A DNA stretch of 64,000 nt from Candidatus Eiseniibacteriota bacterium (GTDB taxonomy: Bacteria > Orphanbacterota > Orphanbacteria > Orphanbacterales > Orphanbacteraceae), in contig JAJCZU010000004.1 of assembly GCA_029262235.1 (NCBI GenBank), positions 771,330 through 835,329 of the forward strand. Reading direction: 5' to 3'. This document shows positions 34,704 through 43,081 of this stretch, piece by piece. The notes beneath the pieces were generated by a model. That model was not told where the DNA came from. It was given only the letters and a program-made list of their open reading frames with translations, and did not search any database. A program made the translations under genes and the position numbers. Positions within the stretch are counted from its first letter, which is position 1, and every line of letters starts with the position of its first letter.

Positions 34704-36593
34704 TCAGTGAAAGTCGACGAGGAACGATCGGCTCTCGAACGGGCGCAGTTCCTCCACGTTCAGTACGAGCGCGTCATTCTCACGCTCATACGTGTAGCTC
34801 GGCGCGTTGAACCCGATGACAGACGGCGTCACCGTGATCTTGCCGGGCGAGCGCGGGAGATACGTGCGCAGGTTGATCGCGGGAATCGGCTTGTCGTATT
34901 CGCTCGAAACATAGAGCCCGAGGCGATTCGGTCCGAGCACTTCGGTCCGGAAGCGCACGCCGTCACGCGCCTCCCACCAGTTCGCCACGTCTCCTCCGGT
35001 CGCGATCCACACTCTCTTCGAGCGCATGTAATTCACGAGCTTCGGGATCACGTCTTCCACGCCCTGCTTCGTCAGCAGATGTGTGTGAAACGACAGAAAA
35101 TAGATCGTACCCATGCGGTAGTGCGCGAGGAACGACGTCTTGTACGCTTCGATTACGGCGCGCGGGTCCTTGAGATCCTGCGTAACGAGGAGTTCGTAGT
35201 CGTCGACGCCGACGCGCGGAATTTCGACGATGCGATTCGACTTCGAGCGCTTCCATGCCGTGCCGCCGCGCGCGATGGTGTGAATCGCGGGCACGGCAGA
35301 GGACGCCTCGAATCCGCCCACCATATAACGGTAGCCGGCGTGGGCAAGCGCGCGAATCGTCTCTTCGTCATACTTTTCCTCGGGCGGCCGAAACCCCACG
35401 CACGCCTGCCCCGTGATCTCCTCGAGATCGGCTTTCGTACGCGTGATGCGCGCGAGCTGCTTTTCATACTGCACGCCGCCGAGCGGTGAGTGGTCGTCCG
35501 AATGCGACCCGATTTCGCCGACGGCCGCAAGCCGCGTGGTAAGGGCCTCGTGATCGCGGGCGAGATCGGACACGCAGAAAAACGTTACGGGAACGTCGAG
35601 TTCGGTGAAAATGCGCTGCGTTTCTTCGGACGCCTGATAGAACGATTCGGTGTCCTGCGCGAAGATGACGGCCGAGCGCCGGCCCTCGGGCCACGTGTCG
35701 ATCGCAGCCACCGGGCGCCGGGCGACCCAGTCGACCGCGTTCGTTGCGAGCCGCGCCGGAACGTTAGCGGTTTGTTCTTTCGTATGAAACGCCGTGAGGG
35801 GCATGCCGAACCAGACGAAACGGCCGTCGCCCGCGCTTGTGTGGAGCGCGAACGAGTAAGGCCCGCGGTCGGCTTCCGGCTCCAGGTCGACGAACTGACG
35901 CGCGCGGTCTGTGTAATAGCCGTCCGCCCAGTCGACGTTGTATGCGGCGAGTGCGAGTTTCCCGTCGAGCGCGCCGAGGATCGTTCCCTCCGGAATGCCG
36001 GCGGTTACGGGGGAGTGTCCGGAGGTCGAAACGAACCACGGCTTGACGCCGTCCGGAAGCGACGGAGAATCCGTGATCCTGCCGTTCGAGAAGCGTTCGA
36101 TCATTTCGTAGCCGACCCACTCGCCCTTCTCGTCGCGCGCGCCCGTGTACCAGCTCGCGACTACGCCGCCGCCTGCCGCGAGATACTCGTCGATCCGTTC
36201 GCGCTCGAGCGCCGTGAGAGATATCGCGGCGGGCAGAACGAGCGCGTCGAAGCCCGCGCTCCGCGAAGCCGTCCATGACTCCAGCTCGCTGTCGGAAATC
36301 TTGACGACCGACGCGCCGGCGTCGGCAAGCCACTGCGCCCAGACTTCGGCCAGCGATTCGCCCATCGGCAGATCCGTCTTCGCGAGATAGTCACGAGAAT
36401 GCTTCGAGTCGAGCACGGCAACGCGCGCCGGATCCTCGTCGAGAAATCCCTGCCCGTCCATTGTGAAATAGCCGAACACGTTGCGCAGCAGCAGCAGATA
36501 GATCAGCACGCCGGAAGCGATCACGATCACGGCGAACAGAAGCATGTAGGCTTTCAGAAGCCATGGGGAAGAAATGCGCCCGGGCAATCCCAT
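34704..36593 (-). CDS. Membrane-anchored polysaccharide deacetylase (CE4 / NodB domain; PgaB/IcaB-like) with an additional N-terminal domain
   Basis: N-terminal TM segment. NodB motifs 'AVIFAQDTESFY' and 'IGSHSDDH'. It is the last gene of the operon and directly abuts the small membrane gene. Confidence 0.65.
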   Translation of the reverse strand: MGLPGRISSPWLLKAYMLLFAVIVIASGVLIYLLLLRNVFGYFTMDGQGFLDEDPARVAVLDSKHSRDYLAKTDLPMGESLAEVWAQWLADAGASVVKISDSELESWTASRSAGFDALVLPAAISLTALERERIDEYLAAGGGVVASWYTGARDEKGEWVGYEMIERFSNGRITDSPSLPDGVKPWFVSTSGHSPVTAGIPEGTILGALDGKLALAAYNVDWADGYYTDRARQFVDLEPEADRGPYSFALHTSAGDGRFVWFGMPLTAFHTKEQTANVPARLATNAVDWVARRPVAAIDTWPEGRRSAVIFAQDTESFYQASEETQRIFTELDVPVTFFCVSDLARDHEALTTRLAAVGEIGSHSDDHSPLGGVQYEKQLARITRTKADLEEITGQACVGFRPPEEKYDEETIRALAHAGYRYMVGGFEASSAVPAIHTIARGGTAWKRSKSNRIVEIPRVGVDDYELLVTQDLKDPRAVIEAYKTSFLAHYRMGTIYFLSFHTHLLTKQGVEDVIPKLVNYMRSKRVWIATGGDVANWWEARDGVRFRTEVLGPNRLGLYVSSEYDKPIPAINLRTYLPRSPGKITVTPSVIGFNAPSYTYERENDALVLNVEELRPFESRSFLVDFH

Positions 36594-36860
36594 CTACGCG
36601 TCCCCTTCGCGATCATGTGACGCGCCGTGATCGTGCGACACGCCCTGCGCGCGCGGCCCGCTGGGAGCGCGCGAGCCGCCTTGATCCGAGGATCCGTCAT
36701 GCACGTACTTCACGAAGAAGCGGCGCTCCATCGTCTTCATTGCGGGCGCCGGCGCCTTCGCCTCGCGCATCTTGTACACGAGAAACGAGCCGGCCGCCAT
36801 GATGATGGTCACGATCGTGGCGATCAGAATGATCGTGGAAAGCAGCGGGATCAGATTCAT
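36594..36860 (-). CDS. Small membrane protein (IcaD/PgaD-like accessory subunit candidate)
   Basis: 88 aa with one TM segment (LIPLLSTIILIATIVTIIMAAGSFLVY), positioned between the synthase and the deacetylase exactly as icaD is. Confidence 0.45.
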   Translation of the reverse strand: MNLIPLLSTIILIATIVTIIMAAGSFLVYKMREAKAPAPAMKTMERRFFVKYVHDGSSDQGGSRAPSGPRAQGVSHDHGASHDREGDA

Positions 36861-36872
36861 GCGAGCCTCCGA

Positions 36873-38195
36873 TCAGATCCGTCCGAGACGGTCCAGTTTG
36901 CCCCAGCCCATTTCGAGCCCGAGCGTCTCTTCGACGAGTCCGTACACTTTGTAGAAGTCGATGACGAGAATGAAAAAGACGCGATACAAAACCGCGTAGC
37001 CGACAAGGCCGAGGTCCTCGTTCTCCATGACCATGCAGTGCATGGCGGCGGCGATGTCGAGCAGCGTGAGCTGCACCCACCAGAGAACGAGCAGATACGA
37101 AAGGCCGTGCACCGCGCCGATGTAGATCAGGAAGAAGTTCGCGGCGATGTTCATGACCGGCCAGAGAATGCCTTCGAATGCCATGTAGGCGGCCGTGAAC
37201 GGGACCGTGAAGTCGCCCTTTTCGACGCGCGTGAAGATCTTCCTGTGCTTCTTGATCGACTGCAGAATGCCGCGCGTCCATCGATACCGCTGCTTCACGA
37301 GATCGAGCAGCGCTTCGGGCGCTTCGGTCCACGCGATCGATCCCGGTTCGTACGTGATGTGCCAGCCCTGCTTGAGGATCTTGAGCGTCAGGTCGCAGTC
37401 TTCGGCGAACGTGTCCGAATCGTAGAGTCCGACATCGACCACCACGTCGCGGCGAAAGAGGCCGAGCGGGCCCGGTACGATGTTGACCGATCGAAAATAC
37501 GCCTGCGCCTTGCGGACGAGGTTCAGTCCCTGAATGTATTCGAGCGCCTGCAGTTTCGCGTAGAGGTTGTCGCGGTTCGACACTTTGACATTGCCGGCGA
37601 CTGCGGCAATGCGTGTGTCGCGAAAGTGGCGGGCGGCGAGCCGGATCGCGTCGGGTTCGAGTTTCGAATCGGAGTCGATGCACGCGATGATCTGCCCCTC
37701 GGCGCGCATGATCCCGTAGTTCAGGGCCTCGGCCTTCCCCTGGTTCGGCTTCGTGAACACGCGGACGCGGCGGTGCCCGTAGTCGCCTTCCCACACTTTC
37801 GCGCGCGCATACGTGTCGTCGGTCGAGCCGTCGTCGATCACGATCACTTCGTAGTTCGGGTAGTTCTGTTCGAGCAGCGAACCGAGCGAGGCGTCGATCA
37901 TGATCCCTTCATTGTAGGCGGGCACCATGATCGAAACGAACGGCGTGTGCGGTTCGTCAGAAATCTGACTGTCTTCGATCTGCTGCAGATAGGAAAACCA
38001 GAGAAGGCAGAAGTAGCGCAGCACGAGCGTCCCGAGAAATCCGAGAAAAAGTACGACCACGGATTGGACGAGCGCGTTCGGGATCGGAATTCTGGACTTT
38101 ACGACCGAAAGGTAGATCCCGAACGAACCGCCGACGAGCAGCACGGACGAGGCGATGAAGACCGACACGTACTTCTGAAACTTGCCGCGCGTCAT
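36873..38195 (-). CDS. Processive family-2 beta-glycosyltransferase (PgaC/IcaA/NodC-like; poly-beta-1,6-GlcNAc-synthase-like)
   Basis: 'SIMVPAYNEG', 'VIDDGSTDDT', 'DSDS', 'FAEDCDL' (TED) and 'QRYRWTRG' (QxxRW), with 2 N-terminal and 3 C-terminal TM segments. 440 aa. ATG at 38195 overlaps the porin stop (ATGA). Confidence 0.75.
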   Translation of the reverse strand: MTRGKFQKYVSVFIASSVLLVGGSFGIYLSVVKSRIPIPNALVQSVVVLFLGFLGTLVLRYFCLLWFSYLQQIEDSQISDEPHTPFVSIMVPAYNEGIMIDASLGSLLEQNYPNYEVIVIDDGSTDDTYARAKVWEGDYGHRRVRVFTKPNQGKAEALNYGIMRAEGQIIACIDSDSKLEPDAIRLAARHFRDTRIAAVAGNVKVSNRDNLYAKLQALEYIQGLNLVRKAQAYFRSVNIVPGPLGLFRRDVVVDVGLYDSDTFAEDCDLTLKILKQGWHITYEPGSIAWTEAPEALLDLVKQRYRWTRGILQSIKKHRKIFTRVEKGDFTVPFTAAYMAFEGILWPVMNIAANFFLIYIGAVHGLSYLLVLWWVQLTLLDIAAAMHCMVMENEDLGLVGYAVLYRVFFILVIDFYKVYGLVEETLGLEMGWGKLDRLGRI

Positions 38196-40084
38196 GAGCC
38201 GTGTCCCAGGGTGAGGCCCGCGCGCCAGGATGTGAGTTCGTAGGAGCCGCCCGCGCGAAACACGCGCGAGTGAAAGAAGCCCGTGCCGAGCGCGACGCGG
38301 TTCGACAGCATGTACGAGAAGCTTGCGGTCACGTCGGCGGCGGTGCCCGTCTCTACTTCGGTGGAGCGGCCGAGAAGCGCTTCGCACTCGAGCGACATGC
38401 TTTCGCGCCAGAGCGAAACGTGCACGCCGCCCTTATGGCTGCGATGCTCGGCGGGACTCCAGTAGAGGTCGGACTCGCCTGTGTACGAGAGATACGTTCC
38501 GCGATACTCGACCGCGACGCGCGGAGAATCGCGGAGCGCCCAGGAGAGCTTCCAGGCGGCGTCGAAACTTTCGTTCTCGTCAGACAGCGTTGTGCGGCGA
38601 AGCGAAGAGCCCGCGCGGAGCGGACCGTCCGGCATCCATTGCATGGCCGCGCGATACGCGGTGCCGTGCAGCGGGGCGTCGCCTACCGCGCGAACCGAGA
38701 GCGCCCGTTCGGGCATGTCGAAGCGTTCGGCTGCGGCATCGAATCGCCAGCGAATGCCGCGCAAGTACTCGACACGCGCTTCTTCTTCGTGCGTGGTGCC
38801 CGCTCCCTCGTATGCGTTCAAGCGCACGGTGCCATGCAGCGAAACCCCGTCGCGCCAGAGCCAGCTGCCGTTTGCCCCGATCCGGTCGACCGCGACCGAT
38901 TCGTCGTTCTGGTTCATGAGAAGGCGTTCGTAACGGCCGCTCGCGCTCCATGCTTCGTCGAACTTCTGCCCCAGATCCAGGGCGAGGGACGACGAACGAA
39001 ACGACTCTGAGTCCTGCGTGTGCCGGTACTCGGGCGTCGATGCGAGAGGACGGTCGCGTTCGCCTGCGTTCCAGTCGAATCCGTTCTGCAATGTCGAACG
39101 CCGGGCCCAGTCGCGGCGCCCTTCCCACTGATAGAGGTCCGCGATCCGTTTCGCCGGGCGCGCGTCTCCCGGCGAGCGGCGCTGCACCGCGCGGTACCGG
39201 TCGAACGCCGCGCGATTCCTGCCCTGCGAAACGAGAATGTCCGCATAGGCGAGTTCGGCCGAGTCGAGTGCGGCGGTATTCGCGCGGTCTTCTGCGTCAC
39301 GTGGCCGGCCCGTGACGCGCGCCTGATTCGCGACCCGCGCCTCTTCCGCGTCACGCGCCTCGTGCCATTGCGCGCGACGCTTTGACGTCTCGGTGGAAAC
39401 CCACGCGCGCGTGCCTCGCTCTGCCTCTTTCCGTGCCTCGTGCAGGCGGCCATCGGCGTCCGCCACGCCTGCGGCGAGCAGTGAGTCGGTGAACCGGCGC
39501 GCGTCATAGTAGCGTTCGGCGCTGACAAGGGCTTCGGCATAGTGCGCCTGCGCCAGTGCGGCCGCGCGATCTGTGTCCGCGAGCTCATCGTTTTGAGCCG
39601 CCGCGAGCGAGCGCTTCGCGAGCAGCACGCCGTACTGAGGATTCGCGCGAAGCTCGCGCATGCCTTCTATCGCCCGCGTTTCGTTTTCGTCCATGGCGAG
39701 CGCGGCGTGGTAACTGCGTTCGGCGGCTTCGACATCGCCTGTCCACCGTTGAAGGTCGCCCGCCGCGCCGAGGGCCGCGGCCGAATGCGCGTTGCGTTCT
39801 TCGAGAAGTGTGATCCCTGCTGCCGGCTCTCCGCTCCAGCCGAGAACCAGCGCCCATTCAATGACGGCGGTTTCATCGGATCGGCCCGCGCTCTTCAGTG
39901 TTTCGAGGTAGCTCTCGTAAAGCCGGGTCGACTCGTCGTAGCGCCCGTCCCACGAGCAGGCGCGGGCGTCCTGCAGAATCGCGGCGGCATCAGAGGGCGC
40001 CGGGTCAGCCGAGGGCGGCATCATCGGAAACAGGAAGAAAAGCGCAGCGTGATACGAGACCAGCAGCGTGATGGGGCCCATCAC
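38192..40084 (-). CDS. PgaA-like outer-membrane export protein: N-terminal TPR repeats plus C-terminal beta-barrel
   Basis: Signal peptide; N-terminal TPR-like helical repeats (about 300 aa); C-terminal alternating beta-strand region ending in an aromatic-rich segment. Confidence 0.55.
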   Translation of the reverse strand: MMGPITLLVSYHAALFFLFPMMPPSADPAPSDAAAILQDARACSWDGRYDESTRLYESYLETLKSAGRSDETAVIEWALVLGWSGEPAAGITLLEERNAHSAAALGAAGDLQRWTGDVEAAERSYHAALAMDENETRAIEGMRELRANPQYGVLLAKRSLAAAQNDELADTDRAAALAQAHYAEALVSAERYYDARRFTDSLLAAGVADADGRLHEARKEAERGTRAWVSTETSKRRAQWHEARDAEEARVANQARVTGRPRDAEDRANTAALDSAELAYADILVSQGRNRAAFDRYRAVQRRSPGDARPAKRIADLYQWEGRRDWARRSTLQNGFDWNAGERDRPLASTPEYRHTQDSESFRSSSLALDLGQKFDEAWSASGRYERLLMNQNDESVAVDRIGANGSWLWRDGVSLHGTVRLNAYEGAGTTHEEEARVEYLRGIRWRFDAAAERFDMPERALSVRAVGDAPLHGTAYRAAMQWMPDGPLRAGSSLRRTTLSDENESFDAAWKLSWALRDSPRVAVEYRGTYLSYTGESDLYWSPAEHRSHKGGVHVSLWRESMSLECEALLGRSTEVETGTAADVTASFSYMLSNRVALGTGFFHSRVFRAGGSYELTSWRAGLTLGHGS

Positions 40085-41715
40085 GACTCGACCATGGCCT
40101 TGGGGTCGACGGACGAAGGAGGCGAGGAGAAGGAATTGCGGAAGGCGTCGGTCAGCGAATAGAGAATCGCGTTCGTGTCGTCTCGGCCCTGAATGAGGGC
40201 CGTGGCCCAGTGGTGTGTTACGTCGGGGTTGCCCTTGAAGTGATCGATCAGATTCGTGTGAAGCCGCTCGCGAAACGCCTGAAATCCTGCTTCGTCCGAT
40301 CCGACGAGTACGATCGCGACATCGCAGCCGGAGATTCCGATCACGAGATCGTCGTTTCGGCAGCAGCGCAGCACGACTTCCGCCGCTTCCTTCGGCGCTC
40401 TGTTCGTGAGCGGATCCTCGCCATCGGGATTCTGAAAACGCGAGAGATAGGCGATCGAGGCGAGTCCCGTTTCGCGCACGAGCGCGATGAGTTCCGAGAA
40501 GCGGTCGGTCACGCGCGGCGTGAACAGGAACTCGTCGGTCTCTGTGTTGTACTCGAGCAGCTCTTCGCCGCGTTCCGCGTCCCCCATGCTTTCGGCGAAG
40601 CGCTCCGCGAAACTCTGTTCGGCCACTCCCGAGTGTACTTCGAGATTCGTGGACGGGCCGCGACGGATCAGGTTCATCACGCGATAGCGAAACTCGTCAC
40701 CGTGCAGCGGGCGTGCCACGATGTCGTCGCCACCCGAGCGAAAGCAGCGAATGCGGTCGAGCGCGCGCATGCGACGCCCGCCTACAAACAGCACCGGCGT
40801 GCGGATTCCGCTTTCGCGCATCCGCGCGCACACTTCGAACGGGGCGCTCGTTCCGTCGGCCAGTTCGATGATCGCGAGGTCGTGCGGGTCGGTGATTCCC
40901 TTCGCCACCGCCTGCATCGGTGACTCGACCGACGTAATTTCGTAGGCATCGCCGAGCGCGGTTTCGATCTCCTCGCCCTCGGGCGAGCGAAACACCATGA
41001 TGCGTCCCCCGTCCGGGATGATCGCATCGGCGTCTGCCTCGGCTCCGTTCTCATTGCCGATCCCGCCACCCTTAAGCAACGTGAACGGAATCGCCTTGCG
41101 GGGGAGCGACGCGCCGCGATACTTGCGAATGCGCAGCACGCTTCCCGGGCCCGTTGCATCTTCGATATGGAAGAGCCCGAAACAGAAGCGTTCCAGCACG
41201 CGCCATGCCGGCGTGCGCGGAATCTCCGTCGCCTCTTCTGAAAGCAGAACCGTGGCCGGCATGTCGTCGAATCCGTTCAGCAGTGCGCTGTAGAAGCCGG
41301 GGTTGTCCGTTACAGGGTAACGCGACTGCAGCAGCGACGAAAACGCCTCCACGACGACTCGCGTGCGCGACTCCGCCAGGGTTGCGATTTCGTCCACGAT
41401 GCTCTTCGCATCCCCCGTGTTCACGACGAGATCCGAGAACGACGCCGAAGGCGCAATCACGACGAGCTGATCGTCGCGCAGAAATTCCGACAGGTCGACA
41501 TCGAGCGCCTGCGCGGCGATAAACAGGTCGCGCGGACGTCCCCCCGAGATCCAGAGGCAACGCTCGCCGCGACGCAGTCCTTCCAATAGAAAGATCAGCG
41601 ACAGCTCGAGTTTCTCCGAACCGATATTGCCCGTCAGCAAATACGTACGTGTCGGCATCAGCCCGCCCGTGATCTGGTCGAGCTGGGGGAACCCCGTAGG
41701 GATTCTTTGCTGCAT
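40081..41715 (-). CDS. BcsE-like tripartite regulator: degenerate RecA/KaiC-like ATPase domain, degenerate receiver domain, and degenerate GGDEF domain with an intact RxxD I-site
   Basis: N-terminus 'GFPQLDQITGGLMPTRTYLLTGNIGSEKL' is KaiC/RadA-like but its Walker A reads GSEKL rather than GKT. The middle domain is receiver-like ('DLAIIELADG...PVLFVGG...GGDDIVARPL'), with E at the phospho-acceptor position. The C-terminal 'RNDDLVIGISGCDVAIVL' aligns to RxxD-LVARYGGDEFavll of GGDEF domains. Its stop abuts the porin start. Confidence 0.55.
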   Translation of the reverse strand: MQQRIPTGFPQLDQITGGLMPTRTYLLTGNIGSEKLELSLIFLLEGLRRGERCLWISGGRPRDLFIAAQALDVDLSEFLRDDQLVVIAPSASFSDLVVNTGDAKSIVDEIATLAESRTRVVVEAFSSLLQSRYPVTDNPGFYSALLNGFDDMPATVLLSEEATEIPRTPAWRVLERFCFGLFHIEDATGPGSVLRIRKYRGASLPRKAIPFTLLKGGGIGNENGAEADADAIIPDGGRIMVFRSPEGEEIETALGDAYEITSVESPMQAVAKGITDPHDLAIIELADGTSAPFEVCARMRESGIRTPVLFVGGRRMRALDRIRCFRSGGDDIVARPLHGDEFRYRVMNLIRRGPSTNLEVHSGVAEQSFAERFAESMGDAERGEELLEYNTETDEFLFTPRVTDRFSELIALVRETGLASIAYLSRFQNPDGEDPLTNRAPKEAAEVVLRCCRNDDLVIGISGCDVAIVLVGSDEAGFQAFRERLHTNLIDHFKGNPDVTHHWATALIQGRDDTNAILYSLTDAFRNSFSSPPSSVDPKAMVES

Positions 41716-42010
41716 TGAATATAATCCTCCGCCTTCTCTATCGAGGATCGGCAGACCTGCGCAGAATCATTCATGTTCCGCGCGGGAAAACGTTTTCGTT
41801 GGGAAATGATGCGAATTTTGTCGAAGGGGGCCAGCCCGGCGTAAGCGCGAAGAAAGCGCGCGTTTGGGTCAGGCGGGTGCAGGGAGGGTTCGTCTCGCCC
41901 GCCCGTTCCCGTGTGTTCCCAACCCCAGCGCCCGTTCACGCTGGACAGTAACGCGCCTCTGTAGGATGATCGGATCTACAACGAATCACACCCCCTTACA
42001 AGTAAACGAC

Positions 42011-43081
42011 ATGACACTTCAGCAGCGCATCCGAGCATCTTCGATCTTCCGTATTCCGTTAGCCGTGACATTCCCGTTCGCATTCCCGTTCGCACTCATG
42101 TTCGCGCTACTGGTTGCGCTTGTGATTGCTCCGCCGCGCGCGACTGCCGAACCCGTTGCCCGCGGCATGACTGTCTCCTGTCAGACGTGGGGGTGGGAGT
42201 GGGGGAGCGACGAAATGGTCGCGACGATGGCCGATCTCAAGGCGATGGGATGCAACTGGATCGCGATTCATCCGTACGCCGGGATTCGGGGCGACGGCGA
42301 AGTCGTTTCCCGCATGGTCGAACGCGGCGAAACGCCCGACTGGCTGACGCGCCCGATCGAAGAAGCCCATCGTCTCGGCCTCAAGATGATGATCAAACCG
42401 CATATCGCATACTGGGGCGGGCCGTTCTCGTGGCGCGGCGAGATCACGTTCGAAACCGACGAAGAGTGGGATCGGTTCTTCACGACTTACACCGCGTGGA
42501 TCGTCGAAGTTGCGCGCATCTGCCAGGACGCCGACGCTTTCGTTGTCGGCACAGAACTCGACCTCACGCTCGGTCACGAAGAGCAGTGGAAGCAGATCAT
42601 CGCTGACGTACGCGCCGTAACCGACGCGCCCCTGACATACGCTGCCAACTGGACCGACTACGAACGCGTGACTTTCTGGCCGCAGCTCGACGTGATCGGA
42701 ATCCAGTCGTACTTTCCGCTCGCCGACACTCTCGGCCTCCGCGAAGAGGCGAGCCTCGACTCCGCGTGGGCCTCGCTCGGCGACAGATTGCGCGCTTTCG
42801 CCGAACCCCTCGACAAACGCGTGCTGCTCACCGAGCTCGGCTACAACCGTTCGTCGAGCGCCGCATGGAAACCGTGGGAGTATCGGTCAGGTGGCGATGA
42901 TGCCGAAGAAATCCAGCGCCGCTGCATGAACGCCGCGCTCCGCGCGCTCGAAGGGAACGATCTCTTCGTCGGCGCGTTTCTATGGAAATGGTTTCCCGGT
43001 GAACAGCAGGGGAGGCGCGGCAACTTCCTTCTCTCGACGCCCACAATGCGGGGTGTGATTTCTTCGAACTGGGGGAAGTAG
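42011..43081 (+). CDS. Secreted glycoside hydrolase, clan GH-A (cellulase-like / GH5-GH113-like (beta/alpha)8 fold)
   Basis: Signal peptide; 'VLLTELGY' is a catalytic-nucleophile-type motif; 'WGWEWGSDEMVATMADLKAMGCNWIAIHPYA' is a cellulase-like N-terminus. The start (42011 vs 41966) is uncertain. Confidence 0.55.
   Translation: MTLQQRIRASSIFRIPLAVTFPFAFPFALMFALLVALVIAPPRATAEPVARGMTVSCQTWGWEWGSDEMVATMADLKAMGCNWIAIHPYAGIRGDGEVVSRMVERGETPDWLTRPIEEAHRLGLKMMIKPHIAYWGGPFSWRGEITFETDEEWDRFFTTYTAWIVEVARICQDADAFVVGTELDLTLGHEEQWKQIIADVRAVTDAPLTYAANWTDYERVTFWPQLDVIGIQSYFPLADTLGLREEASLDSAWASLGDRLRAFAEPLDKRVLLTELGYNRSSSAAWKPWEYRSGGDDAEEIQRRCMNAALRALEGNDLFVGAFLWKWFPGEQQGRRGNFLLSTPTMRGVISSNWGK

Follow-up and report, generated by a model that had tools for sequence, protein, structure and literature searches.

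A widespread five-gene cassette combining a PgaC-like synthase with a BcsE-like protein, probably for c-di-GMP-controlled exopolysaccharide secretion

Introduction

Five closely packed minus-strand genes at positions 34704-41715 of a 64,000-nucleotide stretch of Candidatus Eiseniibacteriota DNA (contig JAJCZU010000004.1; hereafter "the window") raise the question of whether they are a further variant of the pga and ica operons or a system of their own. A preliminary description had read them as a hybrid pga/ica-like operon encoding a regulator, an outer-membrane porin, a family-2 glycosyltransferase (GT2) synthase, a small membrane protein and a deacetylase. Sequence comparison and structure modelling suggest, with good confidence, that the genes are one operon encoding all parts of a synthase-dependent machinery for exopolysaccharide secretion in a Gram-negative (diderm) bacterium, probably controlled by c-di-GMP through a BcsE-like protein.

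Gene organization and conservation

All five ORFs were found at the coordinates first assigned to them, and the sequence of their junctions bears out the reported run of ATGA overlaps and 0-12-nt gaps, with overlaps of 1-4 nt, one 12-nt gap and one 0-nt gap. The stop codon of the BcsE-like gene (TGA, 40083-40081) overlaps the porin start by 4 nt if this is GTG 40084, or by 1 nt if it is ATG 40081, where the product on record (P0121, 629 aa) begins. The stop codon of the porin gene and the ATG of the GT2 (38195) share the 4 nt ATGA. Between the GT2 end (36873) and the small gene start (36860) lies the 12-nt gap, which contains a GGAGG-like site, and the small gene stop, ending at 36594, directly abuts the deacetylase ATG at 36593. 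Independent gene calls on metagenome contigs gave identical GT2 (440 aa), small (88 aa) and deacetylase (629 aa) products. The window is high in GC, and long spurious ORFs are frequent on either strand.

Synteny was counted in loci fetched via the GT2 alone that had enough flanking sequence to judge (downstream n=67, upstream n=55). A deacetylase homologue is immediately downstream in 61/67 loci and the small gene in 54/67, while the TPR/barrel gene is immediately upstream in 49/55 and, in 50/55, a BcsE-like homologue is found no more than 8 kb upstream. Among 80 loci, drawn from eight or more phyla, most keep the gene order; it recurs across Gemmatimonadota, Myxococcota, Thermoanaerobaculia, Ignavibacteria/Bacteroidota, Campylobacterota, Beta- and Gammaproteobacteria, Spirochaetales, Kiritimatiellae and Firestonebacteria, and tight gene coupling is retained in the relatives L084 and L085. 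The same cassette is found in many environmental bacterial phyla, and the five-gene arrangement far exceeds chance; we found no earlier description of it. A divergent gene for a GH113-like glycoside hydrolase (41864..43081, plus strand; Pfam PF22612 at 6.9e-39) lies outside the conserved cassette. It adjoins the cassette in the close relative L084, is absent from L085 and from the 80 genome loci, and is possibly a lineage-specific accessory.

The synthase and the outer-membrane porin

The GT2 gene (36873..38195, minus strand) encodes a putative processive, membrane-embedded synthase of 440 aa, with two N-terminal and about three C-terminal TM helices in a TM scan and no PilZ domain. It matches Pfam GT2 families at 2e-34 and carries the motifs D121-D122-G, D174-S-D176, E265-D266 and Q302-R-Y-R-W306. 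Support for the initial placement nearest to PgaC/IcaA, rather than with cellulose or hyaluronan synthases, came from curated HMM scores and from BLAST. PgaC_IcaA was the best NCBIfam model (210 bits, half of its 422-bit equivalog cutoff), ahead of NodC (113 bits) and CelA (60 bits), and was the best model for 20/20 members of the GT2 family; E. coli PgaC was matched at 31% identity (E 8e-46). With ~50-55% identity across phyla and only 31% to PgaC, the family is a separate orthologous group. The AF2 model (pLDDT 87.4, pTM 0.87) indicates the fold of a processive synthase, with hyaluronan synthase (TM 0.70), BcsA and chitin synthases as the nearest solved folds; no PgaC structure exists for comparison.

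The preceding gene (38192..40081, minus strand) encodes a predicted outer-membrane export protein of 629 aa from the ATG, or 630 aa from the GTG, which reaches no Pfam or NCBIfam family. A TPR and beta-barrel exporter of the PgaA type had been proposed, and the AF2 model agrees: behind an N-terminal hydrophobic, signal-like segment and a TPR-like helical solenoid (~30-331), a 16-strand beta-barrel (~351-625) occupies the C-terminal half of 38192-40084. The model, built on a shallow 20-sequence alignment, has a mean pLDDT of 87.3, with the barrel mostly above 90. The barrel is predicted, with high confidence, to be of the PgaA/BcsC/PelB class, and PelB is among the top structural matches. Conserved motifs of the family are DSxxF, SDxNxR and YW(D/S)P. 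The C-terminus of many homologues is an aromatic beta-signal, whereas that of the window protein is ...GHGS. The signal peptide of the window protein is atypical.

The small membrane protein and the deacetylase

The 88-aa product of the small gene (36594..36860, minus strand) is predicted to be an accessory subunit of the synthase. A single TM segment (residues 10-28 in a TM scan; predicted topology N-out/C-in) is followed by a basic stretch and an FF motif (R46-R-F-F-V-K-Y). In 61 loci from different phyla the protein is encoded immediately after the GT2, with TM segment and FF motif strongly conserved (consensus M(D/E)LIPILSTIILVATI..T..LA.G.Y..YK.RE.RRP...EPxFF..Y). No NCBIfam model was matched, those for IcaD included, and hhalign detected no homology to E. 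coli BcsF (probability 1.2%) or to PgaD (0.6%).

The last gene (34704..36593, minus strand) encodes a multidomain polysaccharide deacetylase of 629 aa, membrane-anchored and predicted to be periplasmic. Domain, BLAST and TM scans agree with the preliminary description on a TM anchor (residues 18-36), an extra N-terminal domain of ~250 aa and the absence of a GH153 domain. The N-terminal domain had been assigned no function; profile matches refine it to a GH42 "trimerisation"/GATase1-like domain (~57-300), with GH42 beta-galactosidase domain B matched at 2.7e-9 (PDB) and Glyco_hydro_42M matched in 24/38 family members. It is followed by a CE4 domain (~305-545; Pfam Polysacc_deac_1 at 9.7e-18) and a C-terminal domain (~546-629) that is probably a beta-sandwich. 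This full-length architecture (~600-640 aa) is conserved in 53/67 loci. The CE4 motifs are D314-T-E316, H364-S-D-D-H368, R402-P-P, D464-D465-Y and H503; because motif 1 is D-T-E and not the canonical D-D, neither deacetylase activity nor metal binding can be taken for granted. With no similarity to E. coli PgaB by BLAST and no NCBIfam match to PgaB or IcaB, the protein appears to be a new kind relative to the enzymes of PNAG systems. CE4 enzymes can also be O-deacetylases, and the family includes acetylxylan esterases.

The BcsE-like protein

The first gene (40081..41715, minus strand) encodes a cytoplasmic protein of 544 aa with no TM segment in a TM scan. The "regulator" of the preliminary description holds as a gene, but not as a DNA-binding regulator: Pfam and NCBIfam reveal no DNA-binding domain, and profile and Pfam matches point instead to a distant BcsE-family protein of predicted c-di-GMP-sensor type, which makes the operon a pga/ica/bcs hybrid. 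BcsE is tripartite, with RecA/KaiC-like*, REC* and GGDEF* modules; it carries two RxxD sites, and BcsF recruits it to the membrane (PMC7439463, PMC8892547). It is a proven c-di-GMP binder whose ATPase, REC and GGDEF modules are inactive (PMC7439463).

The window protein has the same layout. Its KaiC/RecA-like domain (residues 1-232) has a degenerate Walker A (G29NIGSEKL); a pseudo-receiver (~240-362) has E284 at the phospho-acceptor position and the RxxD site R317-A-L-D320; and a degenerate GGDEF domain (~385-544) has SGCDV in place of GGDEF, with the I-site R453-N-D-D456 and R484. The family profile aligned with E. coli BcsE at a probability of 96.3% (E 2e-9, hhalign), as did REC* alone (95%), while the N-terminal domain alone gave no significant alignment (1.9%). 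The C-terminal profile (A5) matched the GGDEF structures of FimX (5.8e-6), PelD (3.5e-4) and also diguanylate cyclases. Betaproteobacterial cassette homologues are bona fide BcsE proteins, matching Pfam CBP_BcsE at up to 3e-89; the window protein itself falls short of this family and still scores as KaiC (PF06745 at 2e-15), with a weak receiver match. Among 35 homologues, R317 is kept in 29, D320 in 26, R453 in 27, D456 in 34 and R484 in 31, and the phospho-acceptor is Asp in only four. The window protein thus has degenerate catalytic motifs (Walker A, phospho-Asp, GGDEF) but conserves both RxxD c-di-GMP I-sites.

Comparison with known systems

The cassette resembles E. coli pgaABCD and Yersinia hmsHFRS, which make PNAG, in its PilZ-less processive GT2 with a 2+3 TM layout, a small membrane partner, a predicted periplasmic CE4 deacetylase and expected c-di-GMP control. 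It differs from pgaABCD in gene order, in a TM-anchored deacetylase with a GH42M-like N-terminal domain in place of PgaB's GH153 C-domain, and in a non-homologous partner with one TM where PgaD has two. In Pga, c-di-GMP is sensed at the PgaC-PgaD interface, whereas here sensing is assigned to the separate BcsE-like protein. As in staphylococcal icaADBC, the synthase gene is followed by that for the small membrane protein and then by the deacetylase gene, and the deacetylase is membrane-associated and has no glycoside-hydrolase domain. Unlike the cassette, ica has neither an outer-membrane exporter nor a c-di-GMP sensor; IcaD has two TMs, the IcaB model is unmatched by the cassette deacetylase, and the cassette has no IcaC-like gene.

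With E. coli-type BcsE of type II cellulose systems, the first gene product shares the degenerate ATPase, REC* and GGDEF* architecture, and its RxxD sites lie at positions equivalent to R306ATD (REC*) and R415TGD (GGDEF*) of BcsE (PMC8892547). Both operons encode a small single-pass membrane protein, that of the cassette having the basic tail and FF motif. However, the synthase is PgaC-like here and BcsA there, and neither BcsQ, BcsR nor BcsG accompanies the cassette. PelD, which likewise has a degenerate GGDEF with an intact RxxD I-site, thereby senses c-di-GMP and activates a synthase-dependent polysaccharide system, but Pel differs in its TM-GAF-GGDEF* layout of PelD, its cytosolic GT4 (PelF) and its different deacetylase/hydrolase (PelA).

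Alternative interpretations

It is unlikely that the locus is a divergent orthologue of canonical pgaABCD or icaADBC that makes beta-1,6-poly-N-acetylglucosamine with no mechanistic difference. While such a relationship would fit the best HMM of the GT2, the name PgaC that JGI annotators give to family members, the CE4 deacetylase with a PgaA-like porin and the icaADB-like gene order, E. coli PgaA, B, C and D score 648, 880, 979 and 58 bits on their own NCBIfam equivalogs, and the four structural proteins of the cassette all fall below the Pga models: the GT2 stays below every equivalog cutoff, that of PgaC_IcaA included, and the PgaA, PgaB, IcaB and PgaD models are unmatched. The deacetylase architecture, the one-TM protein, the distance of the GT2 family from PgaC and a conserved BcsE-family gene, unknown in pga/ica operons, also argue against it. 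The hybrid reading thus stands, with one refinement: by sequence, the system appears functionally like Pga and Ica but a member of neither. The polymer itself could be of another linkage or sugar, given a GT2 at half the PgaC_IcaA cutoff with NodC second best. A chitin/chitosan-like beta-1,4 polymer, a hyaluronan-like heteropolymer or an O-acetylated glucan/xylan-type polymer O-deacetylated by the CE4 enzyme, with the machinery otherwise unchanged, is possible but doubtful. The hyaluronan synthase folds, the atypical CE4 motif 1, the acetylxylan esterases of that family and the adjoining GH113 (mannanase-family) hydrolase are consistent with such a product. However, PgaC_IcaA scores ~2x NodC and 3.5x cellulose synthase, the GT2 motif ED-x-D-[LI]-[TS]-x-K fits PgaC better than the NodC/HAS motif EDRxLT does, and the GH113 gene is not conserved with the cassette.

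For the first gene, a KaiC-type ATPase/kinase or a two-component response regulator, acting by phosphorylation or transcription and not as a c-di-GMP receptor, seems improbable. The KaiC and receiver-like matches favour it, as do a canonical Walker A in 20/58 cassette homologues (unlike BcsE), a phospho-acceptor Asp in a few Myxococcota-type ones and the presence of the KaiC-like domain, alone of the three, in all lineages. The window protein itself, however, has a degenerate Walker A, a Glu phospho-acceptor and no DNA-binding domain; the best-conserved residues of the two C-terminal domains are not catalytic ones but those of both RxxD sites, together with R484; and homology is to BcsE. That the adjacency is coincidental, or that some ORFs, above all the 88-aa one, are not genes, can practically be dismissed. 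Spurious ORFs do abound in this high-GC window, and the porin and small protein match no curated family, but the order of all five genes is retained in dozens of genomes that are phylogenetically far apart, which refutes chance adjacency, the small ORF is strongly conserved, and the porin folds confidently.

A model for the cassette

The most likely role of the operon is to synthesise a sugar polymer of biofilms, trim it and export it, and the system is probably under c-di-GMP control. In the proposed mechanism, c-di-GMP would be bound by the BcsE-like protein, which would be held at the membrane, possibly via the small protein's cytosolic tail; this recruitment step is pure analogy with BcsE-BcsF, given that the small protein has no detectable homology to the BcsF, PgaD or IcaD models. 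The BcsE-like protein would then switch on the synthase post-translationally, and the synthase would polymerise and translocate an N-acetyl-hexosamine polymer, for which a PNAG-like product is the leading guess. The anchored deacetylase would remove part of the N-acetyl groups in the periplasm, after which the TPR domain would take up the polymer and the barrel export it. The cassette would thus bring together a synthase and an outer-membrane pore of the types known from the PNAG system, a BcsE-like c-di-GMP sensor as in cellulose systems, and a deacetylase of a new kind.

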